Assembly: GCA_036630325.1 (NCBI GenBank)
Contig: CP142727.1
Location: 1,054,001-1,118,000, forward strand
Direction of reading: 5' to 3'
DNA from: Vairimorpha necatrix
Lineage: Eukaryota
DNA length: 64,000 bases
The notes under the pieces were generated by a model. The model saw only the letters and a program-made list of their open reading frames with translations. It was not told where the DNA came from and made no database searches. This document shows positions 4,529 through 64,000 of the stretch, one piece after another. Every line of letters begins with the position of its first letter. Positions within the stretch are counted from its first letter, which is position 1. Both the position numbers and the translations under genes were made by a program.

Positions 4529-5257
4529 ATGTTATTGATTTCGTTATTATTTGTTTTAAATATTAAAAAATTAAAAGCTAACAATGAAAAGGATATGATC
4601 TTTTTAATAGAGGAAAGAAAAGAAAGATATAATGAATGCGTTAAAATGCTCTCTCATGATGAAGCGCCAAGTATGCGTGTAACTTATTCTAAAGAAAAAA
4701 GAGAAAAAATAGGAAAGATTATGTATGATGTCCTAATAGATGGTATTGATTTTCCTCTAAAAATGCAACCGAGTTGGCCAAAAACATCTAAAGAATATGA
4801 AATTGACCATGAAGACGTAACATTGGGTATATTTCAACGTGCTTTAACTGGTACTTATAGTGTTCCAAGGCGTTATGGTAAAACAGAAGCACTTTATATA
4901 TTTGTGTATGAACTGGCAGATAAAACTAGACGATTATGGCAAATTTTAATATGTATGTATAATTTTGATGATCTTGATCTTGACCAAGTTAAACAAATTC
5001 TTAAGAAATATTTTGATTTAAAACTTAGTGAAGAAAACAATTTAAAAGTAAAACAGGTATGTAAAAACAACGTTTTTAAACAAATTCTTGATGATGTCTT
5101 CCATAGTATTGGAAATCAAGCAGATAGTAATACCATTGAACATGACAAACGTGAAGATTTAGGTGGTAAAATGCAAGAAAATTCGAATTCAATGATATTA
5201 GCCGAGACCCAGGCTATGGATAGTTCTAATATGAATTTTAGTAAAAAGAATAAATAG
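4529..5257 (+). CDS. Hypothetical secreted protein, family A (242 aa)
   Basis: CCC motif before ATG and hydrophobic N-terminus. Shares FP.K.QP.WP...YEI and GK...Y....LA..T..L...C motifs with the genes at 51721-55505 and 58792-59532. Confidence 0.8.
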   Translation: MLLISLLFVLNIKKLKANNEKDMIFLIEERKERYNECVKMLSHDEAPSMRVTYSKEKREKIGKIMYDVLIDGIDFPLKMQPSWPKTSKEYEIDHEDVTLGIFQRALTGTYSVPRRYGKTEALYIFVYELADKTRRLWQILICMYNFDDLDLDQVKQILKKYFDLKLSEENNLKVKQVCKNNVFKQILDDVFHSIGNQADSNTIEHDKREDLGGKMQENSNSMILAETQAMDSSNMNFSKKNK

Positions 5258-19650: not shown

Positions 19651-20153
19651 AATAATTTTTTTTTAAAAAAAAATAATGAATAATAATAAAAATGAAAAAT
19701 TTACTAAGTTTAAATACGGACTGTTTAGTAAAATTAAAAGGTCTGATGTGCGACAAATACAAGAAAAAAATGAATATAAAGCAGAAGAATGGAGTGAAGA
19801 TGAGTTGTTTAATAGTAATTAATAAAATAGTAAATGAACTAATAGTGGTAACATATAATTTGCAAAATAACACTGGTTAAAATATTCATTGTTTAAAAAA
19901 ATGTATAATGAAAAATAGATTTTCTTTAATATAAATTAATACAATCTGAAAAAAAAGTTATTTATAGCATTTTGTACTAATAAAATCTTATGAAATTACT
20001 AATTCTAGTGACATAAAATTATAATTTTAATTAAAATTAAAGTTATATTGAAAATTTTTCATTTAAAAATATTTGTTTCAGTTTGTTTGTTACAACAAAC
20101 AAACAGTTTCATTCACAATATTTAAAAAAAAATCAACAATGCATAAATAACAA

Positions 20154-21518
20154 ATGAAACCATTTTTTCTCATTGGCTTCATATTTTCTCTAGATAACTA
20201 CATAGTATTATTCAAAATAAAGCCCAATCTAAGTACCCATCAATCCATTCAAAACTATGAAAACACAATGACAAGAACTTTACAATACTTTTCACCTCAA
20301 TCTTTTATTACTGAAAAAATTAAAAACGGGTATATAGCAAAAATTGATGAAAAAACAGTACAAAAAATTAAAAATGATGCGGATGTAGCAATAGTAGAAA
20401 AAGATAGTATTGTAAAAACTGCTGATTATAAATATTATGATTTTTATATAACACCTGAATTTAAAAATGAAAAAAAAAGTAATATAAATAAAAAAACTTT
20501 GGCTGTGCAGGAAAGAGCACCATGGGGATTGAGTAGAATATTGGGGAAACAATATCTGAGATCTAGAAAATATATTTATCCTGAAGACGCTGGTAAAGAT
20601 GTAGAAGCATTTATTATTGATACAGGGATAGATGTTTTACATCCAGATTTTCGAGGTAGAGCGAGATGGGGAGCAAATTTCGTATTAAATTCGCCAAATT
20701 ATGACGAAAATGGACATGGAACACACGTAGCTGGAGTAGTGGGAGGCCATAGATATGGAATTAGCAAACAAGTTTCATTGGTAGCAGTTAAAGTATTAGA
20801 CTTAAATGGTGTAGGAATGATATCGTCAATACTAAAAGGTGTGGATTATGTGATTGAGGAACATGAAAAGAAACGAGATCTTCTTTATGACATTGCAACT
20901 GCCAGCTATCTAGGAATGAAAAAGACACCAAATTTAGAAAAGAGTTTAGAATCTTTTATTAATAATTCTGAATTACAACCAAAAACGGTTGTAAACATGA
21001 GCGTAGGCGGAGTAAAATCATCGGCTTTAAATTTCGCAGTGGATTACGCTACCTCACTCGGGATACATTTCGCAGTAGCAGCAGGAAATGATCAAGAAAA
21101 CGCATGCTCGTATTCGCCGGGATCTTCAAAACACGCTTTTACAGTTGGCGCATCAGATAAATATGATAGGACAGCCGACTTTAGTAATTTCGGCCAATGT
21201 GTTGATGTGTATGCCCCGGGGGTCGACATTTTAAGCGCATGGAAAAATGGAAGATCCACATTGGCATCTGGTACATCCATGGCTTGTCCTCATGTGACTG
21301 GTGTGATGGTTTTATATTTAGGACAAAAAAGATATTCTCCCGAAGAATTGAAAAAGAAGATTTTACAAGATACAAAACATGTAGTGGTGAATCAAATGAA
21401 AGAAAAATCGTATATTGAAGCTTTATGGCCTTTAAACTGGTTTAATAAACAAGAAAAACTTCCATTGGTGTCAACTAACAAGTTTATAAAGAATATCATT
21501 GAAGAAAATAATAAATAA
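20154..21518 (+). CDS. Subtilisin-like serine protease (S8, proteinase B/K type) with signal peptide and I9 prodomain
   Basis: IIDTG, NGHGTHVAG, AAGN, SGTSMACPHV catalytic motifs; APWGLSRI at the start of the mature domain. Confidence 0.95.
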   Translation: MKPFFLIGFIFSLDNYIVLFKIKPNLSTHQSIQNYENTMTRTLQYFSPQSFITEKIKNGYIAKIDEKTVQKIKNDADVAIVEKDSIVKTADYKYYDFYITPEFKNEKKSNINKKTLAVQERAPWGLSRILGKQYLRSRKYIYPEDAGKDVEAFIIDTGIDVLHPDFRGRARWGANFVLNSPNYDENGHGTHVAGVVGGHRYGISKQVSLVAVKVLDLNGVGMISSILKGVDYVIEEHEKKRDLLYDIATASYLGMKKTPNLEKSLESFINNSELQPKTVVNMSVGGVKSSALNFAVDYATSLGIHFAVAAGNDQENACSYSPGSSKHAFTVGASDKYDRTADFSNFGQCVDVYAPGVDILSAWKNGRSTLASGTSMACPHVTGVMVLYLGQKRYSPEELKKKILQDTKHVVVNQMKEKSYIEALWPLNWFNKQEKLPLVSTNKFIKNIIEENNK

Positions 21519-36255: not shown

Positions 36256-37101
36256 TTATTTAATATGTTCGTATATCTGAATTATTTCTTCATGAATTTT
36301 TCTAGCTTCGTAAGAACTTGATATTAATGAAAATAAAATCATTTTTAGTGCTTTAATATATGCACTAACTGCCCTTTTCATCGTTTTATTTTCGTATCTA
36401 TATAACCCAAATCTATTTCTAAGTATTTCAAAGGTGTCAATCATTGGTATATAGTCAAATGCAGAATATATATTTATATCAAATCTATGTAGTTTTATAC
36501 TTTGCTCACATAAATATTTGAATCCTGTTATATCATTTTTCATATCATAAATGGTCAAAAAAAGTTCGATAAGTTTCATAAAATCAATGAGAATATTATG
36601 TATATCGATTGGAGTATTGTATTTCTTCATTAATTTTTTTATTTCCATCAATTGTTTTTTAGTCTTTATACACAAATTATCAAAATTTAATGTCTTTAGT
36701 TTTTCATAAATATTTTTATCTTCTCCAAATTCTATATCTTTTCTAATCTTTTCGCGGTTTACTTGTTCCTGGGTCGATTTACTTTCCATCCTCATTTTAA
36801 ATTGATTAATTTTATTTTCGCAATTAATTAAAAGACTTTTCATAATATATAAATGATTATAAAAAAATTGTATATTGGTTTCTACTGTTATAATTTCTTG
36901 TGTATCATCTGATTCCATACCTGTCAATAAATTTTTATTTTCATTCATATTTTTCTGAAGTTCATCATATGGTCTAAATTTATCATCTTGGCAATTAATT
37001 ATGGATATGTAGCTATCCGCATCATTCTCACCTAAAATATCTTTTTTGTATTCACTTAAAGTCAATTGACCACAATAAATAAAAGCTATAATATACATCA
37101 T
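36256..37101 (-). CDS. Hypothetical secreted protein, family B copy 1 (281 aa)
   Basis: Short hydrophobic N-terminus; FRPYDELQKN, NTPI and IYSAFDYIPMIDTFE shared with the 40880 and 44357 genes. Confidence 0.85.
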   Translation of the reverse strand: MMYIIAFIYCGQLTLSEYKKDILGENDADSYISIINCQDDKFRPYDELQKNMNENKNLLTGMESDDTQEIITVETNIQFFYNHLYIMKSLLINCENKINQFKMRMESKSTQEQVNREKIRKDIEFGEDKNIYEKLKTLNFDNLCIKTKKQLMEIKKLMKKYNTPIDIHNILIDFMKLIELFLTIYDMKNDITGFKYLCEQSIKLHRFDINIYSAFDYIPMIDTFEILRNRFGLYRYENKTMKRAVSAYIKALKMILFSLISSSYEARKIHEEIIQIYEHIK

Positions 37102-37819
37102 TTTATAGGGGATTTTTTAAAAAATTTATTTACAATTACTTAATTAAGGAGAAGTTTGGCCCAGTGAAGAGGAAATAAAAAAGAAATCTTTGAAGATATA
37201 CTTAAAGGGTAAATTATTTTTTCTTATTTCTTGTTACATCATATATTTTAGATTTTATTTAAAAATAGTAATAAAAATTAGCATTAGTGAAAAAAACGAT
37301 AGGGTCACAATTAAAAAATCTGCTTTTTTCAAAAAAGAAAAAATATTTAAGAAAATAAAGACTTCCATTAATGTTTAATTAATAAAATCATTAGCAAAGT
37401 TCATTAAGTTGATCGGATTATGTGACGTCAATTAAACAAACAGAACATAATCACATAAATTATTTGGTATATTTAGTAATCATAATAAGTTCGTACAATG
37501 TAATACTTGATTTAAATTAAATTGAACTTTTTTTCTATGCTAATCGTTTTTTGTTGTTATAAACATACATTGATAATTATAAAAGAAAAAAAATTAGATA
37601 TACAATATGTGCATATGAATACTATATATTCATGACTCTCTAGATTTAAAAAAGACGAAGATCTACTAATCGTTCTTAAAATCACTACTTTGGAATTAAT
37701 GAGATATAATTTATTAAAATTTAGATAGCGAAATGCAAAGAAAGAGATAATAAAAATGATTAATTATTTGCAAAAAAAAAGTTAAACCAGTTATTTATGT
37801 TTAAAAAGTTAATTTAAAG

Positions 37820-40879: not shown

Positions 40880-41725
40880 TTACTTTTTGTATATCTGGAT
40901 TATTTTATTATAGACTTTTCTTCCTTCAGTTATTTTAAATATAATATTATATAAAATTTCTTGGAGTTCCTTTACTTTTAGCTCTGTCTTCTTTTTTATA
41001 ATTTCATTTTCGTATCTATATAATCCTAATCCAGTTTTCATTTTTTCAAAGGTGTCAATCATTGGTATATAATCAAATGCAGAATATATTTTTATATTAA
41101 ATCTATGTATCTCTACACTTTGAGTACATAAATATTCGCATCCCGTTAAATCTTTTTTCATTTCATAAATTTTTAAAAAATGTTTGATAAGCTTCATAAC
41201 CCCAATTAGTATATTATCGATTTCGATTGGCGTATTGTAGTCCTTCAGTGATTTTTTTATTATCTTTAATTGAAATTTAGCATTTAGGCATAAATCATCA
41301 AATTTTAAATCTTCTAGTTTTTTATAATAATTTTTAATGCGTGCTTCCTTTTCTATTCGTTTTTCAATTCTTATTTGTGATCTTTTTTTTAATACAATTT
41401 CTTTTCCCATTAATATTTTAAATTCATTAATTTTATTTTGACATTTAGTTAGATAGAATTTGATTATAATGATTGGGTCATATAAAATTTGTCTACTACT
41501 TTCTAAGGTATTTTTTTCTAATGAAAAATCTGATTTCATATATTTACAATCAACCTGATTTTTTTCTAAATTTTTTTGAAGCTCATCATATGGTCGAAAG
41601 TATTCTGCATCATTTTGAGGTATTATAGATACATAATCATATGGTTTGTTCTCTAGTATGTATTCTTCTATGTAATCGCTTCTATTACATCGAGCAAAAT
41701 TTATAAAATTATAAAGCAGAATCAT
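40880..41725 (-). CDS. Hypothetical secreted protein, family B copy 2 (281 aa)
   Basis: Same motifs as 36256-37101; CCC before ATG. Confidence 0.85.
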   Translation of the reverse strand: MILLYNFINFARCNRSDYIEEYILENKPYDYVSIIPQNDAEYFRPYDELQKNLEKNQVDCKYMKSDFSLEKNTLESSRQILYDPIIIIKFYLTKCQNKINEFKILMGKEIVLKKRSQIRIEKRIEKEARIKNYYKKLEDLKFDDLCLNAKFQLKIIKKSLKDYNTPIEIDNILIGVMKLIKHFLKIYEMKKDLTGCEYLCTQSVEIHRFNIKIYSAFDYIPMIDTFEKMKTGLGLYRYENEIIKKKTELKVKELQEILYNIIFKITEGRKVYNKIIQIYKK

Positions 41726-42394
41726 ATTATGGGTGAAAAAAATTTATCAAAATCTCCTTAGAGATCAATTTTCTAAAAAAAAAATTATATACAAAAAGCT
41801 TTTAACGAAATTCGATCAGATTTATTTAACAACTTAATACGAAATAATACACCAAACATTATGATAAGGTAATAAAAAATATTTTATGCGATAAAAAAAA
41901 CTTTTCGAGGATTTTAAAAGGATTACAACAATAAAACAATTATCGAAACAGTTTTTTTATGTCAAAATATTAAATTAGTTTTAATGAGAGATATTATTTT
42001 ATCTTATATCACGTAATAGATATATGCTTAACGTATATTAGTCGTGTGCGTAGACATCTTTATACTTACAAAAAAATTATACTATAATTTTGAATAATCC
42101 TTTTGAAGACTTTGCAAAAATGATTACAGATAATTTTATTTATCGGATAAAACAGTAAATAGTTTTTTTTGTTATATTTATACTAATGATGTTTAGAATT
42201 TACATATATTTTGTTTTGAAAAACGCCAGATATTTAATTTCTACATGTTTGTCCTTACCTCTACGAATTAAAACTTCAGTTTTTTAAAAATATTTTTTTT
42301 ATTTTGTTATATTTCATGTAATTATTAACACTAGGTTTAGTATTATAATTACCACATACAAATCATTTTTATTTTATCAATTTTTTTTTTGGAA

Positions 42395-44356: not shown

Positions 44357-45199
44357 TTAGTTGTATATCCGATTTAATTTTTCATAAATCTTTACCGCCT
44401 TATTTGTACTTGATAATAAGTTAAATATAATCTTTTTTATTGCTCTCATAATTTTATCTATTTTCATTGGTTTATAAATATTTTCGTATTTATATAAATC
44501 CATTTGTTCTTTCAAATTCTCCAAAGTTTCTATCAAAGGTATGTAATTGAATAATGAATATATTTCTATATTATACAAATTAATTTTTTTTCTTTGTGAA
44601 TATGAATATTTGCGACCCATTGTGTTTATTTCCATATCATAAATAGTAAGAAAAAGTTGAGTGATCTTTATGAACTCAATTATGATAATATTAATTTCGA
44701 TTGGAGTATTTAATTTCTTTATTAGTTTTGTTATCTCATTCAGTTGATAGTTAGTTTTGATACATAGATAATCGATTTTTAATTCTTCAAGTTCATGATA
44801 AATAATTTTTGCGGGCTCCATAACTTCTAATTTTTTTGTAATTAACATACGTGTTATCATTTTTGCGACTGATTTGCTTTTCATCCTTTTGATATATTTC
44901 TTTATTATATTTTTACATTTAATAATATGAAATTCCATTTTGAAAATTGATTTCTGCAATATGTGCCTGTTCCATTTGCAGGTCGAAAATTCTTCCGATA
45001 AGTCTGTTTTCATAAAGGTAGAAGAAGTTTTTTCTGTTCTTATGTTTTTTTGCAATTCATCATACGGCCTAAATACAAAAATTTCTTGAGAGGGTATTAT
45101 GGATATGTAATAATTTGTTTCATTCTCATTAATGTAATCTTTGATGTATTCACTTAAAGTTAACTCAGTACAATGAATATAATTCAAAATAAATATCAT
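44357..45199 (-). CDS. Hypothetical secreted protein, family B copy 3
   Basis: FRPYDELQKN, NTPIEI, IYSLFNYIPLIETLE. Start set at the ATG after CCC. Confidence 0.85.
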   Translation of the reverse strand: MIFILNYIHCTELTLSEYIKDYINENETNYYISIIPSQEIFVFRPYDELQKNIRTEKTSSTFMKTDLSEEFSTCKWNRHILQKSIFKMEFHIIKCKNIIKKYIKRMKSKSVAKMITRMLITKKLEVMEPAKIIYHELEELKIDYLCIKTNYQLNEITKLIKKLNTPIEINIIIIEFIKITQLFLTIYDMEINTMGRKYSYSQRKKINLYNIEIYSLFNYIPLIETLENLKEQMDLYKYENIYKPMKIDKIMRAIKKIIFNLLSSTNKAVKIYEKLNRIYN

Positions 45200-45785
45200 T
45201 TTATGGGTGAAAAGACACATGCCTATTTATATGAATTTTAAAAGTGGTTTTGTTATTAAATTATATGGAGGGTATTCATAGTGTAAAAAAGATTATTCAT
45301 GTATGGTCAATTACTTGACATGAAAAAAACATCAATGCAATGTATAAATGGTATACAACATAAGACTAATAAACTATTACATCTAAGACAAGATGCTTAT
45401 AAATGTTATTCAAGCTTTGTTTGCAAGTCAAGGGAAAAATATAGAGAAACTAAAATTAATCTGGGACTTATATTATTTTTTTGAGAATTAAAACACATGA
45501 GAGTACCCAATATATAGGTAAGCGTATTTAATCGCGTGGGAATTATTTTCTTAAATTTTCGATTTTAGCCAAAATGTTTGTACGAATTTTCTGGGAGTAT
45601 TTGAATGGAAAAACAGGTAAAAGATTATAGAGTAAACCGATGGATACAAAATAAATGAATTAAAATTTACTCTTTTTATGAATAAACAAAGAATATAACT
45701 TAGACAATCATCAAAATTATCAACTACAGAAATTACCATCAACTGTATGTTTTAGAGCCATATTGCTTTCGTATTATATATTTTA

Positions 45786-48700
45786 TGTATTTTTTTTTAA
45801 AAGAAGGTAGAAATTATACAAATATATAACATCCCTCTCTAAGACGGTTAGTCTCCCTTTATCCTCAACCCAAGCAGACCTTTCAGATCATAGTGTCTTT
45901 TCTTTATGTTTCTTTCATTTACGAGCTTTACAATGTATGAACCTTTACCACATCTCTCTATAATTTGACTATTTTCCAAAAACCCGCCTTTTGAATATTT
46001 CGTACCTTTAAAGTCTCCTTCTTGGCTACTTCAATGTACTCACCTACTTTAAAAACTTCTCGCTTTCCCTTATTTGCCATTTATACATATTTTCCTTGCG
46101 AGTTGTTTTCAATCATTACGTTCTCTTTTTCATTTTCTGTTACTTCTTTTGGTGTACATTTTATTGCGGCATGATAACTCATATTATATTTTTCAATACT
46201 ACTCATAACTTTTTCTTAATGGTACCTTCTTTCGTCTTAAAAATGCCTTTTTGCATCGTTATTTTGAAATTTTGCAAGCAACATTACTTTTGTTTGACGA
46301 AAAACTTACTTTTTTATGTTTAATTTCTAGTCTGTTGAAAAAAGCTTATACCCCCTCATTGAAAAAATCTCGTTCGTTATCAGTTATAATCTCTTCAGGC
46401 TTTTCCCCTTGCTCATATAATCTACTAATAAATTCTATAACATTATTTCCAGCTTTTTTCCCCATTACCGTTCTTCATACTCTTCGGTAAAATAATCTAT
46501 AGCTATTAATACGTGTTTACCTATGTCTCTAAAATCAATAAGATCCAAAGCAACCTTTTTAAGATAGAGTGTGTCTACAAATTCATATCCTCTGACTTAC
46601 TCTTTTATATATTTGCACTGTTCACACCTTCGTATTGCTTCATTTATGTCTTTCTTTATTCAGGGCCAATAAAAATTTTCTCGCATCACGTAATATACAC
46701 TAGTCATGCATCTATATCCAATCCGCTCGTGGTACTCTTGCATCCACCTCTCCCTTATATCTTCTGGAAGGATCTCTGCCTTTCGCCCCGAATCGAATGT
46801 CCTGTATCTCTTTTCTCCTATCATCTCAACGTGAGGGTTCCATTTACCCTTTATCGGCTTAATGGATCTTTCATTTTATCGTCTTCTATATGTATTCTAC
46901 TTAACGCGTCGGCCACTACCAGTTTTTCTGGATTCTTATATCCTATGGGAAAATCAAATTCCTGAATCTTATCGATCCATCTATTTATTCTATTATTGTA
47001 AAATATAGCTTATTACTAATTTCTACTACTGCTTTATGGTCTGTCTCAATGTCAAAGTTCCTGCCACGCAATTCTTATTTAAATCGTTAAATTTCCCAAA
47101 ATGTCGCGTACATTTACCTTTTCTGATATATTTTATCTAGTCTCCGTAGTGTTATGTTTTTTGAGCTTCATTGTATTGCTACCATTCTCCTTTCTCGTTC
47201 TTCTGAAGCAACACTGCTTCAATCCCTACTTTGCTCGCGTCCGTTCTGTTAATAGATACTTTACAATAATGTGGTAATCTAAATTTCCTCATCGTTCTCA
47301 ATACTTATTTTAGCTCTAAAAACTCCATTTCATTTCAATTGTCCATTTGCATTTTCTATCTTTACCTCTCAAGCTATCTGTCAGATGAATAGTTATTCCT
47401 GCATAATTCTTATTAAAATTCCCAAACCACCATGTTATTCCTAATTCTTTGCGTTTCACTTACACTTGTCGCTATGGGAATTCCAGTGCTTCGTTCCTCT
47501 TTATCTTTTTTGCTTCAAAATCTGTACCATTCAATGTAACGCTTAGAGCTTAACTAACTGAAACTAAATTGTATCTTCTCAATATTTAACCTCATTTATG
47601 TCTCTTTAACCTATCCAATACCTCTATTACCAACATGTCATGTCTTCTTTGGTTTTAGCGTATATGACTTTGTCGTTCATATATACTCCAACGCCATCTC
47701 CTTCCAAATCATCAAGGAATTTGAACATTTTTCGTTGTATTCTGCCGGGAATTTATATATCCTATCACCATGCTGTTCCATTCATATAACTTTCTTAAAA
47801 TTCAAAGGCCGTTTTGTGTTTGTCTGCTTCTTCAATTCCACGTGATAAAATCCCATTTTAAATCTATTACTATGAATCATTTGATTCGTGTGGCTTTATC
47901 AATGTCCCCGACATTTGACAACTCATACGGATCTTTCTCAACCACGCCATTTAAACACATTAGATTACATATAATCTCGCTTCTCCGTTAGGTTTACCTA
48001 TAGCCCCAATTGTGTTCCTCCAGTCAGGTGCCGACCTTCTTGTAATCTTTTTATCTTATAAACTTTTGATATATTTTCAGTATCCTTCATCAATTCCAAT
48101 GAAATTCTCTGCACTCCTTTTACTGCTCTTTTTCCTTAAGGGGCTTAATTTTCCATTTTTATATCTTGTAATATCTAATCTCTTCCTGTTGCGAAGAAAA
48201 CTTCCTTAAATTTTGCTTTTATGCCTTTAATGCTAAGACCCTTTCTTTTCTATCTTTCCTCTTTTCTTTTCGTTCTACTTCTTGCTTGCGCTTTACCACT
48301 TTTTCTATATTCTTGCGTACTGAGCTCTGTGCTTGTAGATCCACCCTCTTTTTGAACGCTTGTACGAATTAAAACGGTTATTTTTATTATTTTCCTCTTT
48401 CATCTTCCTTACGGAGCAATCTTATGCCATGTGCCCGAATCTACCGCAGTAAAAGCGACATTCACTCCTCTGCTTACATACTCTTTACTTACCCTTAAGC
48501 TTGCTTTTTTATTCGCTAATTCCTCTTTGAATGTTCCTCTAACCGACTCAGCAATCATTTCAATTATTCTACATTCATCTTCTTTTTCTATAACTTTTTC
48601 TTCCTTTTAAGATTCTTTTTCCATTTCTTCAACAATTAAAGTCCGATTGTCTTCTTTCCTAATCCTTTCAACCATAAAATTTTTTATTTCTTCTGAACCC

Positions 48701-48889
48701 ATTTCAAAAATTTTTGCTTTTAATATAGGCATGTCAACACCATCTAGCTCTAATTTATACACCAGCCCTTAACTTCTTGTAACATTTTTTCTGACCTCTT
48801 GACCACAGCCCTCACATGTCGACTCTCGATTTGGAATCGCCCCCACTATTTATCATAATGAGGAGGCGAAATTATACAAATATATAACT
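45786..48889 (-). mobile_element. Decayed ~3.1-kb Ty3/gypsy retrotransposon with ~45-bp LTR remnants
   Basis: Shared LTR core GAAATTATACAAATATATAAC at 45810-45830 and 48868-48888. PBS TGGGGGCGATTCC starts at 48845 on -. PPT AGAGAGGGA lies next to 45831. Broken CCHC, RT (EWNSMV, VYM.D), RNase H (ETDHK, RWIDKIQEFDF) and integrase remnants. Confidence 0.88.
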
Positions 48890-50171: not shown

Positions 50172-52123
50172 ATTGGGATACGTCTGGTTCTATTATTTAT
50201 AATTCAAATATTAATTAAAGTTCTGCATCAACACTACACATTCTTTATGAATTAATGATATGATTAAAATGCATTTGACTATCTAGGTTACAAAAAAAAC
50301 ATGAAACTACACTCGTTGATCTGTAGTTCTTAACTCTTTATTTAATATGTATAACGAAAAACATTTTTTACTTTCTATTTTTACAAAAAAAAATTTAATT
50401 CACTTTCAAGACTATAATATTTCTCTTTACGAATTCTGGGTAAAATAGGTTTACTATATTTAGAAGATAAATGAGAAAAAGGTTTAATTTATTTTTTCCA
50501 TATAATTAGAATATAATACAATTAAAGCAATATTCTAAATATAAAGACAATCACATGGAGAAATTCAATATATGAATATTAGTTAGTTCCACTTTTTTAT
50601 TTTAATTTATCAAAAAATAAATTTATACGACGTTTTATTGACTCATTGATTTTATTAATGTGGACGGCGGATAGTCCAGATATCATGATTGGTAATTCTA
50701 ATCGGTAAAACGTCTCAGTCTGAAACAACGTTTCAGAAATAAATATAAATACCTTTTTGGAATAACAATCATGGGTAAAAATAAATACAATTCAACTAAA
50801 TCTCATATTTCGTCTAACGTCAACATATTAAATTAACAAATAAATCATTTAAATGACATTTAGAAACAAACAGAGTTGCACGAAAAAACAGAAAAAATAA
50901 TTTAAAGTATACACCAATAACAACCCCTTTCTTCATTGGTAGATTATAAAACCAATTACATTTGAATTTAAAAGTAACACGACAAAAAAATTTATTATAT
51001 GGAATAAATGTTATACTACCAATATTCTCGTAGTAATACTTGCCTCGATTGGAATTGCACACTATAGTAGCTAGAGTATTCAATTCCTATTACAATCACC
51101 CCCTAGAAAAAGCAACCCTTGTTGTTTTTTAAACATGATAATCTCAAACGGTTTTGCAACTTCTTCCTTTTGCCGTAAGTTGCAATGAGAATTATTATAC
51201 TAATTTTCAATTTTGCCACATCTCGCACTATATGAGTCATATAATCAGTACTGCTGACTAAATTTAAAATATGATTCGTTTTCTAATATAACAATATCTA
51301 TTTCATTCTTTTAATCAAGTATGGTATTATTCTCTTAACAAAGATGTACTGCGATTTTAATTCTTTCTCAATATATGATTCTCAAAAGGAATTAAAAAAT
51401 GACTTTTTAGCTAACGGAATGGCACTGAAGTAAATGTAGATGTTGAACTTAAATTGCACATAAAAGAATCTATATGACAAAATTTCTAACTGAGATAGCT
51501 TTCGAGGTAGAAAATACACTAAGATATACTAGAACAATCAAATGATTGTTTTCCGTATATGTAACTACTTTCGCTAAATCATAAAAAAACATCATAGCTT
51601 AAGCGTATAACTAAAAAATGAAAATGTCTAATTTGATCAATAAACAAAATTAAAATACATAAAGATTAAATAAAAATATAATAGCCAAAATAAATATAAT
51701 ATGTTATATGAAAAATGACATCACTCTAAAAATAAGCCTAATCTTTTATATGAATTATCTTCTACCACTTTAATGTTAATAATGTGTTGTCTGGTTTTGG
51801 GTTCTTCATAAATATATTTCAGGCTCCTTAAAATCATTTTATAATCATCATTATCAAATACTTGTGTGACTTTACATGTTTCCTGATCGTCGATTTTGAT
51901 AGTCATTATATAAGATAACACAGTTTTTAATTTATGTTGGTTTAGTTCTTTTACATTAAAATTAAAACATAAAAGAGAATTATAAATTTTTTTGGTTTGA
52001 TTCGCTAAAGATTTCAATAATTCATAAATTACTTTTTCTTTTCCGTGATATGTAATCTTGAGACCAGTCATATTTAGTGAGTGCCAATATATCTCGAATC
52101 TCAAATCTTTTTTAGTTATTTCA

Positions 52124-52161
52124 TGTTAACCATTTATTTATTAAGGGTTCTAAACCCTACA
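52124..52161 (-). repeat. 3' LTR (38 bp)
   Basis: Minus strand TGTAGGGTTTAGAACCCTTAATAAATAAATGGTTAACA; contains the ORF stop codon. Confidence 0.95.
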
Positions 52162-55100
52162 TCCCCCCTCCAGACGGGTAGTCTCTCCATCTTCTAAACA
52201 ACTCTTCCTTATCTCTTTCAAATCATAATGCCTCTTTTTAACAATTTTACCATCCAGTAGTCTCACAATATATGAATCATTTTCACTTATAGCTACGATC
52301 CTTCCGCGACCCGTGAATCTTCCCTTGTCTGTTTTCGCACGTGTACCTAAATTTTCTCTTCTAGCGATTCTTACCTCTTGGCCTACTGTAAATGTCTCTC
52401 TGTGTCTTCTCTTGAACCGACCAGCATATTTTCCATTTTCATCATTTTCAATTATAACTTCAGCAGTTTGATCTCTCCACGCTTCCATCGGCGTACATTT
52501 TATTGCTGTATGTAGTGTATTATTATATCCTTTGATTGCTCTTTCTATCTTTTCAGAAATATTCCCATCATTTTGCTTTATCAATGTCTCTCTTATAGTT
52601 CTGATGCATCTCTCGATTCTACCATTACTCCTATGAGCTTCTAAGCCCACTTTCCTATGTTTAATATCATTAATACTACACCATTCTTTAAATCTATTAC
52701 TTACAAACTCTTTTCCGTTATCTGTCACATATTCCTCTGGAAATCCATCTTCCCTTATCCACTTTTGTAATACCTCTATAACTTCACTACTCTCTTTACA
52801 TCTCAAATTCGAACCCCACAACCTTCTAGTAAAGTAATCAATACCCAGTAACACATACCTATTCTCTCCACCTATGTCCATTAAATCCAACGCCACTTTC
52901 TCCAATTTCTTTCTAGTTACTACGAAATCACATCCTCCTGTGTTTTTCCTATTGTTAATCCCACATATTTCACAATTCTTAATTACCTTATTAATATGAT
53001 CTTTTATACCAGGCCAATACCATCTTTGTTTAATGTTATAATAAGTGCCTTTGACACCTCTATGGTTTAACTCCTCATGTACTCTTGTTATTTCATGTTC
53101 TCTACTATCTAGGCTCAATATCTCTTTCACCTCACCTGTGGAAAATTCCCAATACTGTTTACCGTCCTTTTCTTTAATATGTTTCTGCTTTTTTCCCAAA
53201 ATTTGTTTTTCGATCACTTCTTTTCTCTTGTTGTCCTTTTCTTTTTGTTCATCCGACACTTCTACCTGATCATACTGCCTACTTAACGCATCTGCATCTG
53301 TCATCAACTCCCCTTTCACATACTCTATTGTAAAGTCAAACTCTTGTATCTGTTCTACCCATCTGTTTATTCTGTTATTATTGAAGTATGGCTTATTTCT
53401 GATCTCTGCTAATGCTTTATGATCCGTCATCAAATGAAATTTCCTTCCTCTCAAATCACTTTCAAACTTCTTTATTCCAAAAAACACCGCCAACATCTCC
53501 TTCTCACTTATCGTATATCTTCGCTCGGTAGGAGTCAACATTTTCGATGCCCATTGTATCGGAATCCACTCACCCTCTTTATTTTCTTGTAATAGAATTG
53601 CTCCGATCCCCGTATCACACGCATCAGTTCTTACTCTAAATAGCTTTTTCCCGTCCGGAATCTTCAATTTTTTCATATCTCTCAAGCCTTGCTTCATATC
53701 CTCAAAAGCTCTTTCCATATCCTCCGTCCAATTCCACTTAACATCTTTCTTTAAAGCCTCAGTAAGCCTTACTGTTCTATACGCATAGTTGGGAATAAAG
53801 TCTCTAAACCAACCAGTTAGTCCTAAAAATCTTCTTAACTCTCTAACATTCTCAGGTTTTCTATATTCCAATGTCTCCTGCTTTTTAATCTCATTCGGTC
53901 CCATGACCTCCCCATTAATTGTTACTCCCAGCAACATCACCTCATCTTTTTTGTATTGTATCTTTGTTTGGTTTATTCTCAACCCACACTCTTTAAACTT
54001 TTTAATTACCCTCTCTAGTAACTCGTCATGCACTCTTACGTCTTTACCATGAATAACTATATCATCCATATATACTTCCACGCCTTTACCTCTGAATTCA
54101 TCTAAAACTCTGTTCATTACTCTCTGCATTATATGAGGCGAATTCTTAAACCCCATAACCATACTATTCCATTCGTATACTCGACCATTCACTTCAAATG
54201 CTGTTTTGTGCTTATGGTGCTCCTCAATCTCAATATGATAAAACCCTTCTTTTAAGTCGATAACCGTAAATACTTTTGACCCCTGTGTGGCTCTCATAAT
54301 ATCCTTAATTAACGGTAGTGAGTACGGGTCCTTGTCAACCAAATCGTTTAACGCCATCAAATTGCTTACCAATCTTACGTCCCCATTTGGTTTTTCAAGT
54401 GCTCTTATTGGACTCCTCCACTCACTTTTGGAACGTCTTATAACCCCTCTATTTTCCAACTTATTCAAGTACTCCTCAAATTTCACCCTAAGGTAGTATG
54501 GCACATTCTGCCCTCTTTTCACAACCTTTTCACCTTGCTTAGTATTTATTGGACACTTCTCTCCTGTGAGATATTTTATCTTTTCTTCTGATTCTTTAAA
54601 AACTTCCGGATACTTTTCAATTAAATTTTCTAACTTATTTACTGTTTTACATCTTTTCCCTTCATTGTTGATAATTGGTTCTTTCTGTAAAACTTGTTCC
54701 TTTTTAATTTTATATTTTTCCCTACCAGCTACACTTTCATGACATTCTCTAGCGTAATGCCTTTCTTTCTTACATATAAAACATTTTGTAGTTTCTCTGA
54801 TTTCTCTTCTTTTCCTATACATCCTAAGATTTTCTTTTCTTTCTTCCCTAAACTCTTTCAACACTTTATCCATAATCTCTTTAATCATTTCTTGTCTTTC
54901 TTCTGACTCTCTCTCAAATTCTGCTCCTTTTTGTAAGCCTTTATAAATTTCCTCCCAACTGCTCCTTCCGTCACAAAAATTTTCAAAAATATAATCCTGC
55001 AAGTTCGCAGATGCCAAATCCATAACATCTTTCCACTCAACTTTCTCAACTTTCAATATTAACTTTAGTCTCTTATCTATCCTAATTGCCTCTTTCTCTA

Positions 55101-55170
55101 ATGTTCTAGCCTCTTGACTACGGGACTCTCTTGTTTCCCTGTTCATCCTTGTGTTCGCCATGTTAACCAT
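52150..55170 (-). CDS. Gag(CCHC)-RT-RNaseH-integrase polyprotein (1006 aa), no recognisable protease
   Basis: CFICKKERHYAREC; DLKEGFYH, MGFKNSP, YMDD; TDACDTG, EKEML, TDH; HEELNH...CEIC, LDLMD, TDNGKEF, NGRIER. Confidence 0.95.
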   Translation of the reverse strand: MVNMANTRMNRETRESRSQEARTLEKEAIRIDKRLKLILKVEKVEWKDVMDLASANLQDYIFENFCDGRSSWEEIYKGLQKGAEFERESEERQEMIKEIMDKVLKEFREERKENLRMYRKRREIRETTKCFICKKERHYARECHESVAGREKYKIKKEQVLQKEPIINNEGKRCKTVNKLENLIEKYPEVFKESEEKIKYLTGEKCPINTKQGEKVVKRGQNVPYYLRVKFEEYLNKLENRGVIRRSKSEWRSPIRALEKPNGDVRLVSNLMALNDLVDKDPYSLPLIKDIMRATQGSKVFTVIDLKEGFYHIEIEEHHKHKTAFEVNGRVYEWNSMVMGFKNSPHIMQRVMNRVLDEFRGKGVEVYMDDIVIHGKDVRVHDELLERVIKKFKECGLRINQTKIQYKKDEVMLLGVTINGEVMGPNEIKKQETLEYRKPENVRELRRFLGLTGWFRDFIPNYAYRTVRLTEALKKDVKWNWTEDMERAFEDMKQGLRDMKKLKIPDGKKLFRVRTDACDTGIGAILLQENKEGEWIPIQWASKMLTPTERRYTISEKEMLAVFFGIKKFESDLRGRKFHLMTDHKALAEIRNKPYFNNNRINRWVEQIQEFDFTIEYVKGELMTDADALSRQYDQVEVSDEQKEKDNKRKEVIEKQILGKKQKHIKEKDGKQYWEFSTGEVKEILSLDSREHEITRVHEELNHRGVKGTYYNIKQRWYWPGIKDHINKVIKNCEICGINNRKNTGGCDFVVTRKKLEKVALDLMDIGGENRYVLLGIDYFTRRLWGSNLRCKESSEVIEVLQKWIREDGFPEEYVTDNGKEFVSNRFKEWCSINDIKHRKVGLEAHRSNGRIERCIRTIRETLIKQNDGNISEKIERAIKGYNNTLHTAIKCTPMEAWRDQTAEVIIENDENGKYAGRFKRRHRETFTVGQEVRIARRENLGTRAKTDKGRFTGRGRIVAISENDSYIVRLLDGKIVKKRHYDLKEIRKSCLEDGETTRLEGGCRV

Positions 55171-55198
55171 TTATTTATTAAGGGTTCTAAACCCTACA
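55161..55198 (-). repeat. 5' LTR (38 bp)
   Basis: Identical to 52124-52161; contains CCC, AATAAA and the ORF's first ATG. Confidence 0.95.
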
Positions 55199-57689
55199 TT
55201 TCATATCTATTATTTTTATTAACACCGGGCCAGTTCGGTTGACTTTTAATAGGAAATATCATATTACTCAAAATACTATCATAAAGTAATTTTGCCATTA
55301 GTTCTGCAATAAGGAAATCATAAGTTTTATATGTTATTGTAGTACTATCTTGAAAAAGTACTCTACGACAATGTTTACGATCTTCATACAAAATATCGGC
55401 CTGATCACTTCCTTCTATTGTCCAATTAGTTAAAATTTCAGTTACGGTATTGTTTATAACTCGTTTTAGATTTAAGAAAACTAAAGCTGTATTTAGAAAC
55501 ATCATAACCCTCCATATTAATTTTTAAATGTACAAATAAATCTATTACACTAGAATGATAAATTTTTTTTTAAGATTCACAACAAATTAGCTTATGATGT
55601 TTTGTTTAAACACTTTGTTTGTTAATGTTGTATATCTGACTTACTTAATATTCTTGTTGACTCAAATAAACAAAACTTAAATATTATAATTATGTAATTC
55701 GCAATTCTTCGTATGTATAGAGAGTTAAGAAGTCCTTCATATTATGAAAAAATAGATTAAAAACATTAAAATGTCAATTGAGTTAGAAAAGTGTTGAATA
55801 TGAATATTTTAGATTAATTTTTATAAGTTCAGAAACCCCAAATGTTGAAATGATGGCTCATGCTTATTCAGACCTAATTCAATACCAACTATGTATAATT
55901 TCTAATATGTATATAAATATTATCAAGTTTTTTTAATCAGTTTGCGCAATACACTACATAAATAAATTTTTTTGTAAGAGGTATATATTGTAATAAATTT
56001 GTAATGATATGTAGAATATTAAGTCCAAATTATAAATTTCCAATATTTTTTGAATGTATGACTTTTTCGTTAACTTTTAAAATAATAATTAGAGAAATTC
56101 TAGAAAATTATATCATTCAAAAAGCTTGTCGATTTTGTGATTATATAATTTCATCAAGACTTTTAGACATAAATAGTAAGTTCAAGTCAATTTTAATCCG
56201 GAAACCTAGTCAATACCGTACATTTGTATTTTATAAAATAAAAGTTTACTTTTCTTCTATATAGCACGACTAGATGACTACAAGATTTTAGATTTTAATA
56301 AGGCAAGTACATAAAGGAAAGCAAGTCTACAAGTTAATATAGCTTACGCTAAGATTAGAATAAAACCACGATAATTTTTCATAGAAAACATAAAAGATAA
56401 AATCTATGACCAACATGCACACACATTAAAAACTCTGATCTTTACACAATTAGAGAAGATCAAGAGAAATATTCATTTCTTAAGGACATATATAAAAGTG
56501 TTAAACAATTTATAAATATTAAGAGACATGGATTTTTCTTTATTGCAAGACTTCATTCATTTCCAGCATTCTTTACGAAGTTAAAAAACCACTGCTTTTA
56601 TACCTTGTTTTCAAGTTGGCGTGGTAAATAAAAACTTCCTATTAAGAATCTGTTGTTAATGCCTGTCTTTTCACGATGAAAAAAAATAGATTATAAACAT
56701 TTTGATATAGGGAAATACGGAATCTAAAAATAAAATAAAACTTTAGTACATATAATTGATGAAATAATAAGATTTAAACAATTTAAACCATATATATATG
56801 AGTACTTAAATTTGGATCGGAGCTATTGAAAAAGATACATTTATTTTTATCTTCTTAGAATAGCCGAACATAAATAGGCTTAAACATTTGGGTTTGCCGA
56901 TTTTATTGTTTAGAAAACAGTATTCTATGTAGAAAAAAGTGGTGACAATTTGGTTATCAAATAAAAGTTTTAAAATAAAAATTGTCTAAAACACCCTTTT
57001 ACTAGTTCATATTGTTAATACATTTACCTTTACAAAGCAAAAAGTTTGACACAAACTTCTAAATTTTTTTTTCAATGTAAATATCTAGTGCGCAACATAA
57101 TAAATTAACAGACAATAAATAAGACGACAATATTTTTAAATTTTTAAATCTAAGGATATACCTTGTAATACATATTCGACTAAAATTTATAGATTACTAT
57201 AACAATTTGTCTTCTTTGTAAATTATTCTATGATAGGAACATTATTTATATCTCAATTCATTTTCTTGGAGACACCAAAACATTATCTTAATTCTATTGA
57301 AATTTACTTATATTTAAACAAATAATTTAAATAAAAATGAAGACCGTCATAATTTCTATTTTCTTACTTTTTTATAAAGTCTGTTTATTTCGGTAATGTA
57401 CCGGTAAAAAAAAATTATTAACACGTTGTTGCAGTGGGTCGTTTTTGAAATTTCTGGTTCGAGTCAGCGTCACTCGCTTTCAAAATTGTTCAGAAATAAT
57501 GAAATAACACAAATTTATTTTTCGAAATAAATATAGACATCAAACACAACTAACATAAATAAATACTTTAAATTAATATTTAATTTTTTTTGCTTAATAA
57601 AGTCTTAAAATCCAACAATTATTTTATTCAGATTATAAAAATGACAATATAGATACATAATAGTACATAAAGTATATGATAATTAAGAC

Positions 57690-58791: not shown

Positions 58792-59532
58792 CTAATTTAA
58801 ACAATACACATTGTTTTGTCTGCTTAATTGAGAATTTTGAACATCTAAGATATCAATTTGTAAATTATCAAAGGACATATTAGAAACACAATTATGTATT
58901 ATGGCGATATTATTGTCGGTAACATATCTGATTTCTTTCTTTATGTTTTGAAAATTTCTTCTTGAAAAAACTCTTGTTACTTTATAACTAATAAAACTCT
59001 CCAATTTAATATCAATTTTATTCGACAAAACTAGTTTTATATGAAAAAGATTGAGTTTTTGTTTTCTAAAATTAAGACACACTATATCATTATATAATGC
59101 ACGAGTTTCGTCAGCAAGCGATAATAATATTTCGTAAATTACTGCTTTTTTTCCTATATTAAAAAAAAAGAAAAGAGGATCTTTCAATGACCTATATAAA
59201 TTTCAAACTTCAGGTCTCGTTTTAAGATTTCATATTTCTTTTTATTTCGTTCTTTAGGCCAGTCAGATTTCATTTTTATTGGAAAGTTCAAATTTTCTAA
59301 AAGTAAATCAAAAAAAAACTTTAGCTATTGCTTCTGCTTGCGAATTATTATAATTATCAAATATTTGATTATGGTTTGTAAAAAATAATTGTTCATGGCA
59401 ATTATCATTCTCTATTTTTATTTTAGTAATTTTTTCATTTTTAACTTCCGCGTCATAATTTTTTCCCTTGGTTGTGGGATGAGTTTTGACTTTCTGGAAA
59501 TCCAGAACTAATAAAAAATGTTTCAAAATCAT
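58792..59532 (-). pseudogene. Family A secreted-protein gene with frameshifts
   Basis: CCCC-ATG start and signal-like N-terminus. Across frameshifts it reads NFPIK..SDWPKERNKKKYEILKRDLKFEIY then GKKAVIYEILLSLADETRALY. Confidence 0.75.
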
Positions 59533-61566: not shown

Positions 61567-64000
61567 TGTTATATATCCTTATTATTTTTACCCCTTATGA
61601 TGGAAAATAAACACATGGGGGCGATACCAGAAAATGGGTCTACAAAGGAGGACCGTGGCCAAGAGGCTAGAATATTATTAAAAGAGGTTAAAAGGATTGT
61701 TTATGAGTTGTTTTTAGAGAAAATTGATGAGTGTGGATTTAAATTAGAAATTTTTAGGAGAGGTTCTATTTTATTGAGAAATTTTATTGTTGAGAGGATC
61801 TCGCAAGAGGGTAGTTGGAAGGAAATTGAGGAAAAATTAGAGTTGCTAGCTATTCAGGAGGAAAAGGAACAAGTGAGAAAAAAAGAATTTGAAGAGTTGT
61901 CCCTAGCGTTATGGGCTAAATTTGAGGAGAAGAATAAGTTGTCTCGTAAGGAAAATAAAAAGAATATGCGTTGCTACAGTTGTGGGAAGTTAGGCCATAT
62001 GTTAGATTTTGTAGGGGAATGAGGCGAGATTCCGAAGACAGAAGAAATAAAAGTAGTTTTAATTATGTTGGTAAATGTAAAGTGCAATTAGACTTAGAGG
62101 GTAAATGTGATGACGATTCCAATTCGGACAAATGTGATTATTATAATGTTGATGGTGGGAAACGTAAGAAGAAAAATTTAGGGGATATACAAGATTATAG
62201 CAAAAGGGACAATAATAAGAGAGTTCTGTTGAGAAGGGATGTAAGAGGCATCGCGTATTTAGAGGAGATTATTTCACGGGTAGGAGGAAGAGAGGATGAA
62301 GATATTAGTTTTTGTAAGGTTGAAAAATGTATTATCAAGACTCAAGAAGGCAAAAAAGTTGTTAAAAAGGGGCAGGCTATAGCCCAGGCTTTGTTGAAGA
62401 AGACGGAAGATTATATTAATAGTTTGGAAAGAAGAAAGATAATTAGAAGGTCGACATCTGACTGGAGAAATTCCATTAGAGCGATTGAGAAACCGAATGG
62501 TGATATAAGATTAGTAAGTAATTTAATTGCTCTTAATGACATTGTAGAGAATGACCCTTATGAGTTAACTAGGAAAAGAGATGTTATTAGAAGTACACAG
62601 GGATCTGAATTTTTTACCGTGATAGATCTAAGGAGGGGTTTTATAGTATTGAGATTGAAGAGAAGGATAGGTTTAAGGCGGCTTTTGAGTTTAAAAAAAA
62701 TGTATCCGAGTGGAATTCGATGGTCATGGGGTTTAAAAACTCACCGCAGATATTACAAAGAATAATGAATGGGATTTTTGAAAAATTTATTGGTAAGGGA
62801 ATCGAAATTTATATGGACGATATTGTGATTCATAGTAAGACAAGAGAGGGTCACGACAAATTGTTGAAAGAGGCTGTGGATATATTAGAGGAGAATAGTA
62901 TGAAAATTAATTTAGCTAAGGTTCAATTATGTAAACGAGAGGTGATGTTGTTAGGAGTAACAGTTAATGGCAAGGAGATACTGCCATCTGAAATAAAGCA
63001 AAATGAAGCGTTAGAATTTCCCAAACCGGAGTGTGTATCAGATGTTAGGAAGTTTCTTGGGCTGGCTGGATGGTTTAGAAATCATATTGATAATTATGCA
63101 AAACGTACATTGGCGTTGACGGATTCTTTTAAAGGACGAGGAAGTAATTGGAAATGGACAGAAGAAATGGAAAAAGAATATATTAGTTTAAGGGAAGTGA
63201 TTAGGGATTTAAAAGGTTTAGCAATTGTTAATTATAATAAGGAATTTTTGTTACGCACGGATGCGAGTAATGTTGGATTGGTTGCTGTTTTAATGCAGGA
63301 AGATGATCAAGGTAATTGGGTACCAGTACAGTGGGCATCAGAAAAGTTTACGCCTACGGAAACGAGATATGGAATCAGTGAGAAGGAGATGTATGCAGTC
63401 TTTTGGGGAATTAAAAAGTTTGAATATGAACTACGCGGAAGAAGATTTAGGGTAGAAACTGATCATAAGGCATTGATCGAGATTAGAAATAAACCAGTAT
63501 TTAACAATAATAGAATTAACAGGTGGATTGAAAAGATTCAAGAGTTCGACTTTAGCATTGAATATAGAGAGCCTAGTACCATGGTTGTAGCAGATGCACT
63601 GAGTAGGGTACATGAAAATGAGAAAACGCTAATGAATAAGGAGAGAAGTATTAAACAGGCACAGGGTAAATGGGACAAGCATGTTAAAGTTGTTGATGGG
63701 AAGGAAATTTGGGTATTTGACTCTGGTAGAGAAGCGGAGATTCCAAAGAAAGAATTGCGTGAAGGTTTAATTGTCAATGCTCATGAAAATTTGGGACATA
63801 GAAGTTTAGGATCAGTGTACTATGCAATGAAGTTTGAATTTTATTGGCCGGGTATGAAGAAGGATATCGAGGATGTTTTAAAGAAGTGTGAAGTTTGCCA
63901 AATATATAATAGGAAAAAGAGTGGTGGTTGTGATTTTGTTAGTTCAAGATTTTATTTGGAAAAGGTTGCTTTGGATTTGATTGAGGTTAGAGATTTAGGG
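61567..64000 (+). mobile_element. Third minimal Ty3/gypsy copy (frameshifted, truncated by the window end)
   Basis: Putative 49-bp 5' LTR TGTTATATA...AATAAACACA (61567-61615) with CCCC-ATG inside, then PBS TGGGGGCGATACC. CYSCGKLGH, YMDD, TDAS, TDHK, HENLGH...CEVC. Frameshifts near 62000 and 62630-62700. The 3' LTR is outside the window. Confidence 0.9.

Follow-up and report, generated by a model that had tools for sequence, protein, structure and literature searches.

A protease-less, Ty3/gypsy-derived clade of compact long terminal repeat retrotransposons, with a recently inserted copy in Vairimorpha necatrix

Introduction

The closest described systems to the element reported here are found among the Ty3/gypsy long terminal repeat (LTR) retrotransposons. 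Ty3 of Saccharomyces cerevisiae carries LTRs of hundreds of nucleotides (nt). Tf1 of Schizosaccharomyces pombe, a member of the same group with a single Gag-Pol open reading frame (ORF), depends on a protease that it encodes and primes itself from its 5' end. Other retroelements, such as DIRS-type elements, long interspersed nuclear elements (LINEs) and the hepadnaviral P protein, work without a protease. Here we describe an element, copy 1, in a 64,000-nt stretch of the microsporidian Vairimorpha necatrix (assembly GCA_036630325.1, contig CP142727.1, positions 1,054,001 to 1,118,000 of the forward strand; hereafter the window). Copy 1 is very probably an intact and recently inserted member of a microsporidian-type, Ty3/gypsy-derived clade of ~3.1-kb elements in whose ancestor the retropepsin was lost once.

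Microsporidian Ty3/gypsy elements have been described, in the accessible text of PMC4202319, as encoding one polyprotein instead of gag and pol, and the word 'protease' does not occur in that text. The same point is repeated in the accessible part of a 2026 genome paper (PMC13174016). Nearly all Nbr elements of Nosema bombycis are given the order Gag-protease-reverse transcriptase (RT)-RNase H-integrase in the available portion of PMC2474625, citing Xu et al. (2006), and the clade described here may overlap with those Nbr families. Among grass elements, FRetro64 and FRetro129 (SMART) have LTRs of 76-90 bp, TGT..ACA ends and a duplication of 5 bp at the target site (TSD, target-site duplication); FRetro129 is non-coding and FRetro64 is 5.2 kb long and of the copia type, according to the sections of PMC3281118 at hand. 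Those 76-90 bp are the shortest printed LTRs that we found, and the figures and PDF supplements of Parisot et al. (2014) may bear on novelty. No protease-less or shortest-LTR elements of microsporidia were found in the literature searched, though Repbase-type libraries and supplements may hold some unremarked.

Copy 1 shares with Ty3 and the Metaviridae the order of RT, RNase H and integrase, an integrase with H2C2 and DDE motifs, a CCHC knuckle, TG..CA LTR ends and a 5-bp TSD; a primer binding site (PBS)-like tract and a polypurine tract (PPT) adjoin its LTRs. It differs from Ty3 and the Metaviridae in having no retropepsin and apparently no two-lobed capsid, in having a single ORF and LTRs of 38 nt, and in a coding sequence that overlaps the LTRs, PBS and PPT. 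Its single Gag-Pol ORF recalls that of Tf1, whereas the protease of Tf1 has no counterpart in copy 1. Like the microsporidian single-polyprotein groups of Parisot et al. (2014), it encodes one polyprotein and belongs to microsporidian-type hosts. FRetro64 and FRetro129 resemble it in their short LTRs, TGT..ACA ends and 5-bp TSD, but the LTRs of copy 1 are 38 nt and it is coding and of the gypsy type. The likeness to DIRS-type elements, LINEs and the hepadnaviral P protein would be a functional analogy only, that of a multifunctional, uncleaved enzyme with no encoded protease. Membership of the DIRS/Ngaro elements is ruled out by the DDE integrase (rve), the direct LTRs, the 5-bp TSD and the lack of a tyrosine recombinase, and copy 1 differs from LINEs and the hepadnaviral P protein in lacking both a LINE-type endonuclease and a terminal protein.

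Results

Copy 1 is a complete element whose coding sequence runs into both LTRs

The ORF of copy 1 is bracketed by a perfect 41-nt direct repeat, which resolves into a 38-nt LTR and the TSD (Table 1). The LTR sequence, TGTAGGGTTTAGAACCCTTAATAAATAAATGGTTAACA, occurs twice in the window, at the two ends of copy 1 and nowhere else in the 64 kb, where shuffles give an expectation of 0. The two LTRs are identical at 38 of 38 positions, have TG...CA ends and are far shorter than is usual for Ty3/gypsy elements. A long target duplication and the junction of a tandem array were considered as sources of the 41-nt repeat and rejected, given the TG..CA ends, the separate 5-bp TSD, the positions of the PBS and PPT, and the 3,080-nt empty site described below. 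With the ATG of the ORF in the 5' LTR and its TAG in the 3' LTR, the PBS-like tract and the PPT are both coding. The CCC motif of the LTR lies 13 nt upstream of this first ATG. The ATG that is conserved in the family, and is the head methionine in most of its proteins, straddles the LTR/PBS junction (...CA|TGG), its A being the final base of the LTR and its TG the start of the PBS; copy 1 has an extra ATG 9 nt upstream of it, within the LTR. The G+C content is 35.9% in the element as against 27.8% in the AT-rich window. A sequence-only reading of this locus, which had first pointed to a missing protease, overlooked the minus-strand orientation, the 38-nt LTRs, the overlap of the ORF with both of them and the fresh insertion.

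The same layout recurs in relatives. In an alignment of four 5' ends from diverged elements the junction ACA|TGG is invariant, as is CCGTCT..G.GGGGA|TGT in an alignment of four 3' ends, and the C-terminal peptides ...ETTRLEGG... and ...RLPSGGGD... that recur among relatives are the translated polypurine region. One relative (L004), 3,163 bp long in all, has 39-nt LTRs that differ at one position and is flanked by a duplication of TTATA; another (L081) ends in GGAGGAGGGGA followed by a 38-nt LTR. In L082 and in a second copy in the window (copy 2) the inferred 5' LTR measures 47-49 nt and is followed by TGG, the left borders being placed by the TGT motif only. By reading of the sequences, AATAAA is present in five of the six LTRs seen and CCC in four.

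Table 1. Features of copy 1, of the gene that it interrupts and of the two other copies (positions in the window).
Feature	Position	Strand	Basis or remark
Complete Ty3/gypsy-type LTR retrotransposon, copy 1, 3,075 bp	52124..55198	-	identical terminal direct repeats, empty-site contigs, diverging flanks
5' LTR, 38 nt, TGT...ACA, with CCC motif, AATAAA and first ATG of the ORF	55161..55198	-	
3' LTR, 38 nt, identical to 5' LTR, with ORF stop TAG (52150-52152)	52124..52161	-	
TSD TGAAA, upstream copy	55199..55203	-	
TSD TGAAA, downstream copy	52119..52123	-	
PBS-like tract TGGCGAACACAAGG, directly after 5' LTR, translated (M)ANTR	55147..55160	-	
PPT GGAGGGGGGA, directly before 3' LTR, translated ...LEGG	52162..52171	-	
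Single ORF, 1,006 amino acids (aa), 3,021 nt with stop, 98.2% of element	52150..55170	-	stop-to-stop frame
Gag-like helical module (aa 14-127)	54790..55131	-	AlphaFold model
Single CCHC zinc knuckle CX2CX4HX4C (aa 130-143), nucleocapsid-like	54742..54783	-	sequence
Knuckle-to-RT linker (aa 144-178), usual protease site	54637..54741	-	35 aa, K/E-rich
Reverse transcriptase RVT_1 (aa 259-418)	53917..54396	-	Pfam E 3.9e-31
RNase H: RT_RNaseH + RT_RNaseH_2 (aa 481-611)	53338..53730	-	Pfam
Integrase: Integrase_H2C2 (aa 690-741) + rve core (aa 766-839)	52654..53103	-	Pfam
Host gene split by copy 1, upstream half	55194..55523	-	aligns to residues 8-95 of paralog 4508-5257
Host gene split by copy 1, downstream half	51721..52125	-	aligns to residues 97-194 of paralog 4508-5257
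Copy 2, different family member, runs off window; inferred 49-nt 5' LTR 61567-61615 then TGG	61567..64000	+	54% aa identity to copy 1, frameshifted twice
Copy 3, old decayed family member, ~3.1 kb, degenerate LTRs ~44-46 nt	45786..48889	-	

No retropepsin is encoded by copy 1 or its clade

The polyprotein, of ~118 kDa as estimated from its 1,006 aa, has 129 residues before the knuckle, in keeping with the ~130 counted in the sequence-only reading, and the pre-RT motif LIEKYPEVF at residues 179-187. The stretch between knuckle and motif is charged as that reading had stated, although it measures 35 aa and not ~45. No protease family was matched in the polyprotein by Pfam at E<=1. D[ST]G occurs in the whole polyprotein only at residue 519, inside RNase H, in keeping with the earlier remark that the protease motif is missing; chance alone would be expected to leave 260 aa without such a 3-residue motif, and its absence taken by itself is thin evidence. 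No beta domain is present at the retropepsin position in the AlphaFold models of copy 1 (residues 1-260) and of full-length P0014, an intact database protein to which copy 2 is 93-97% identical across three frames, and the linker is disordered in both models (partly so in copy 1). Thus neither model shows the retropepsin fold that was looked for between Gag and RT.

When 5.8 billion proteins were searched through a word index, 171 matches at E<=1e-10 were obtained. The best ~44 of them (P0002-P0045, E < 1e-160) are ~1,000-aa proteins, mostly on contigs of 3.0-3.4 kb, and include dozens of intact relatives, many of these ~1,000-aa ORFs lying on contigs of ~3.0-3.2 kb. Clade members extend down to ~40% identity. 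Their named hosts, Nosema granulosis, Vairimorpha necatrix and Enteropsectra breve, represent three microsporidian genera, and the records of two further relatives are mis-binned as Clostridium metagenome-assembled genomes (MAGs). As the precomputed Pfam labels were unreliable for these AT-rich proteins, Pfam was rerun. It gave weak protease matches in the distant relatives P0046 (199-287), P0047 (57-141), P0051 (197-244) and P0055 (272-362), and no protease in P0014, P0006, P0035, P0038, P0042 or P0044.

A custom protease hidden Markov model (HMM) was built from the segments of P0046, P0047, P0051 and P0055 and taken through four iterations on the part of each protein that precedes an RT anchor. 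All but one of 121 proteins had such an anchor, and 56 of these 120 scored with the HMM. None of these 56 was among the 47 clade proteins (P0001-P0045, P0048, P0050), 40 of which are judgeable, with at least 120 aa upstream of RT, while seven are N-terminally truncated. The knuckle was carried by 36 of the 40, and the CCHC residues are invariant in aligned members. Outside the clade, by comparison, 56 of 73 proteins scored. Eight of the 17 that did not are too short to judge; the other nine are P0076, P0077, P0081, P0094, P0095, P0101, P0107, P0112 and P0113, all of which sit singly among protease-bearing relatives in the tree and form no clade, apart from P0094, too short after RT to place. 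A protease in most family members was looked for and seen in 0 of 40 as against 56 of 73 more distant relatives, and the suspicion of a family-wide loss is borne out. The copy at 61597 (copy 2) had likewise been called protease-less, which agrees with the absence of a Pfam protease from P0014 and with the disorder of its linker (residues 141-213), modelled below a predicted local distance difference test score (pLDDT) of 50.

Applied to all stop-to-stop frames of at least 40 aa in the six frames of the 64 kb, the protease HMM reached a best E of 0.29, and alignments of protease-bearing relatives to the window cover only what lies downstream of their protease. Pfam, the custom HMM, the six-frame scan and AlphaFold, all negative, agree with the earlier statement that there is no protease domain and no room for one in the linker. 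Across 24 aligned members the knuckle-to-RT linker spans 27-105 aa (median 45), with a mean pairwise identity of 16.5% as against 48.5% in the adjoining pre-RT segment.

A basal sub-clade formed by P0042 and P0044 (and P0041, P0045) has no CCHC and a longer N-terminal region, of ~270 aa with Gag-like motifs. Because of this, the knuckle and the short helical module may be features of the 33-row core only.

The protease was likely lost once

In a FastTree tree of 99 rows and 770 columns from RT to integrase, a single clade of 35 takes in the rows without a protease (30 so judged, and five truncated), with support 99. Its sister is P0046 with P0047, followed by P0055, P0049 and P0051, all protease-bearing or truncated, and copy 1 is nested among protease-bearing Ty3/gypsy-type polyproteins here as in the tree that follows. 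A quick IQ-TREE analysis of 38 chosen rows (19 from the clade and 19 protease-bearing) over 512 RT-RNase H columns, which left out the scattered protease-less outgroup rows and all truncated rows, showed one change of state, on a branch with a Shimodaira-Hasegawa-like approximate likelihood ratio test (SH-aLRT) value of 97. The tree has no Ty1/copia or Bel-Pao outgroup and its root was not inferred. Any reasonable root outside the clade, however, has protease-bearing lineages to either side of it, so that a single loss of the protease in the common ancestor of the clade is the simplest reading of these trees. The protease-bearing sisters are compact too, at 1,090-1,110 aa on contigs of 3.4-3.7 kb; being ~90-100 aa longer, they differ from the clade by roughly one protease domain. 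Given that its phylogeny and most of its features fit Ty3/gypsy, that the retropepsin is missing and that a canonical capsid is doubtful, copy 1 is best called a derived, protease-less variant of that group and not an ordinary member.

Copy 1 is a recent insertion of a mobile element

Contigs from four public DNA runs were compared with positions 51900-55400 of the window. One contig in each of two runs, X1 and X2, joins 52117 to 55198 and skips 3,080 nt, with 7 letters at the joint that fit either side. As 3,080 nt is the length of the element plus one copy of the TSD, these contigs show the empty site; X1 and X2 may carry the filled allele as well, on which contigs are silent. Unrelated sequence in the same runs begins at 52123 and at 55198, 55199 or 55205 (loose contig ends), and other copies with different flanks exist in these runs. 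Word depth in X1 is ~60-65 for element-internal contigs as against 3.6 for the empty-site/flank contig, a depth that is not a copy number. Because its LTRs are identical, its ORF is intact, empty-site contigs exist and other copies have other flanks, copy 1 is a recent insertion of a mobile, multi-copy element.

Deletion of the element with one TSD copy restores the frame of the host gene into which it inserted, and the split gene is contiguous against its intact paralog. The gene belongs to a small multigene family without a Pfam match, with members at 4508-5257 (+), 51721-52125/55194-55523 (-) and 58792-59202 (-), the last of which looks truncated. The 3' LTR of copy 1 (52124-52161), with a promoter-like motif and an ATG, could start transcripts or short ORFs into the downstream half of the gene; the frame from this ATG stops after MVNMK.

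As for the target, that of copy 1 is TGAAA, the six flank letters ATGAAA (55199-55204) recur at several other copies in runs X1-X3 (loose ends at 55205), and L081, 67% identical, has TGAAAT directly after it (2762-2769). Other flanks are TTATA for L004 and, upstream of copy 2, TCAAA. From these flanks, a target-site preference may exist.

The N-terminal region is a small helical module with one knuckle

An AlphaFold model of residues 1-260 of copy 1, built with 24 sequences, has a pLDDT of ~87-97 for residues 20-160. It consists of helices at 14-38, 46-52 and 55-65, one 56-residue helix at 72-127 and a post-knuckle helix at 147-162, with low-confidence stretches at 171-178 and 196-220 and almost no strand; the full-length model of P0014 has the same N-terminal plan. 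The tiny Gag of the sequence-only reading can thus be described as a helical module of ~115 aa and one zinc knuckle.

Comparison with known folds gave little beyond the knuckle. Foldseek searches of the N-terminal model against PDB and BFVD returned 0 matches at E<=0.001; weaker matches were limited to very small zinc knuckles in PDB and, in BFVD, one CCHC fragment of 26 columns. In a wide VIA-align search the best Z was 5.9, for generic helical bundles, and the capsid-lobe rows lay within this helical noise: the C-lobe of Arc at Z 5.7 (residues 22-88), the C-terminal domain of Arc at 5.3 and the N-terminal domain of the Ty3 capsid at 4.8 (residues 20-92). Pfam gave no Retrotrans_gag match in the polyprotein, and a PDB sequence search gave only nucleocapsid knuckles at E ~0.09, with weak matches to the nucleocapsids of human immunodeficiency virus and murine leukaemia virus. 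Feature neighbours of the N-terminus in the ESM Atlas were Retrotrans_gag, Ty3_capsid and zf-CCHC clusters at 0.90, a lead only. A search of a representative library with the N-terminal 165 aa gave 19 matches, 15 of them fragments of 45-210 aa, and no family outside these elements; a scan of viral contigs gave only distant matches to integrases of the bacterial type. It is plausible that the N-terminal region retains what is left of one capsid lobe, fused to a long helix and a nucleocapsid knuckle.

Discussion

A working model for movement without an encoded protease

As a working interpretation we favour, as evenly poised between right and wrong, that copy 1 acts through an uncleaved polyprotein in cis on its own RNA. 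Encephalitozoon cuniculi genes have 5' untranslated regions (UTRs) of < 7 nt, with a CCC-like motif shortly before the ATG, AAUAAA and frequent read-through, and a comparison of upstream motifs found the CCC-like motif in other microsporidia too, according to the available text of PMC2803860. Since microsporidian 5' UTRs are this short and carry such a motif, a 38-nt LTR could hold a promoter of the host style. Transcription would then start a few bases before the ATG, driven by this minimal promoter in the LTR, and the RNA would end at or just past the 3' LTR, with a repeat region (R) of ~10-15 nt and perhaps no U5. The polyprotein, not matured by any protease of the element, would act whole: the knuckle and helical module would bind the encoding RNA and multimerise on it in a cis-acting ribonucleoprotein (RNP) instead of a matured capsid, the fused RT-RNase H would copy the RNA and the fused integrase would insert the DNA with a 5-bp duplication. 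Some known retroelements have RT-integrase fusions that are active while uncleaved, and a protease is absent altogether from several classes of retroelement.

Several points weigh against this interpretation. To our knowledge, every LTR retroelement studied by experiment needs its protease. The likeness of the N-terminal module to a capsid lobe is weak and at noise level. The element was found in no RNA run, so that the transcription start, poly(A) site and R are all inferred. Host-protease cleavage in the disordered linker would look identical at the sequence level. Furthermore, the PBS-like tracts of different members would, as read, pair with unusual acceptor stems, and for that reason priming may be unconventional.

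TGG directly follows the LTR in every member, and the remainder of the tract varies between members. A scan of the window for tRNA genes found 0. Self-priming in the manner of Tf1 was considered and is not indicated, the 5' 99 nt of copy 1 folding no better than shuffles (z -0.34), and on inspection no complementarity was seen between the LTR and the PBS-like tract of copy 1. Copies 2 and 3 have in common the tract TGGGGGCGAT[A/T]CC (window 61616 onward; 48843-48845 onward), unlike those of copy 1 and L082, which are TGGCGAACAC and TGGCAACACC, respectively. Sub-families may, to judge by these tracts, use different primers.

The sequence-only reading had offered an uncleaved polyprotein, a host or helper protease, or replication without a canonical particle, and these are not separable by sequence tools. 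A protease of the host cell might cut the polyprotein in the knuckle-RT linker, and perhaps also between RT/RNase H and integrase, so that maturation is outsourced. This is unlikely on balance, but it deserves serious attention: the linker is disordered and exposed and its length is free (27-105 aa), as would suit a general-purpose tether open to proteases, P0014 has another stretch of low confidence between RNase H and integrase (residues 665-675), and the window contains a putative subtilisin-like protease ORF (20151-21518, by reading of the sequence). A conserved cleavage motif, however, is not found in the linker at its mean identity of 16.5%. The lack of conserved cleavage sites also speaks against a clade that is non-autonomous and borrows the retropepsin of protease-bearing sisters, like P0046/P0047 or P0051/P0055, in the same genomes. 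Such sister lineages do exist, equally compact and similarly AT-rich in coding style, and P0002 of the clade and the protease-bearing P0051 both come from mis-binned 'Clostridium sp. MAG' records. Yet the 64-kb window holds three protease-less copies and no protease-bearing element, and an old and diverse clade would have needed its helper throughout, which makes borrowing improbable.

It might also be asked whether copy 1 is functional at all: were it a domesticated gene, a defunct relic or an artefact of assembly, nothing about mechanism would follow from the missing protease. Decay is indeed seen in two of the window's three copies. Against this stand the identical LTRs, the intact ORF and the perfect TSD of copy 1, the empty-site contigs in two runs, the copies with other flanks and the dozens of intact relatives, which together largely refute the idea and leave it hardly credible.

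A broader statement of the favoured cis-acting model, to which we give rather doubtful assent, is that the whole clade is near the theoretical minimum for such elements and moves without a protease or matured capsid, as a single uncleaved, cis-acting nucleocapsid-RT-RNase H-integrase. Its elements would then be 3.0-3.2 kb long, with LTRs of 38-49 nt that amount to little more than a core promoter of the host style and a poly(A) signal, and with coding sequence running over LTRs, PBS and PPT. If this were true, an LTR element would have converged on a LINE-like RNP lifestyle, and the rule of obligatory retropepsin maturation for integrase-bearing LTR retroelements would be overturned.

Implications

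At 3,075 bp and with 38-nt LTRs, copy 1 moves the lower limit for coding LTR retrotransposons of demonstrated mobility further down, and shows how far an LTR element can be stripped down and still move. In the clade, nature has in effect put to the test whether LTR retrotransposition can do without a full capsid and without maturation by a protease. The clade also illustrates how the compaction of parasite genomes acts on a selfish element, one that appears to borrow the minimal promoter and terminator grammar of its host. The default settings of LTR finders demand LTRs of ~100 bp or more, and finders with such a minimum would miss these elements as full-length copies; as a consequence, the transposable element content of microsporidia, the dating of insertions and events of gene disruption are probably mis-annotated. 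A self-contained, 3-kb retroelement with one ORF could moreover be a convenient model for reverse transcription and integration.

Other observations

In L001:50-3127 and L002:1092-4142, a member of the family that lacks its first ~85 residues is joined in frame with the RNase H region of another, gypsy-type element. The junction is spanned by an 843-aa open frame and may reflect a nested insertion or a chimera.

The window also contains a set of three ORFs of ~287 aa, one of which was scanned and had only sub-threshold Pfam matches. They are tandem paralogs with similar N-terminal and central motifs, encoded at 36256-37116, 40880-41743 and 44357-45226, all on the minus strand.

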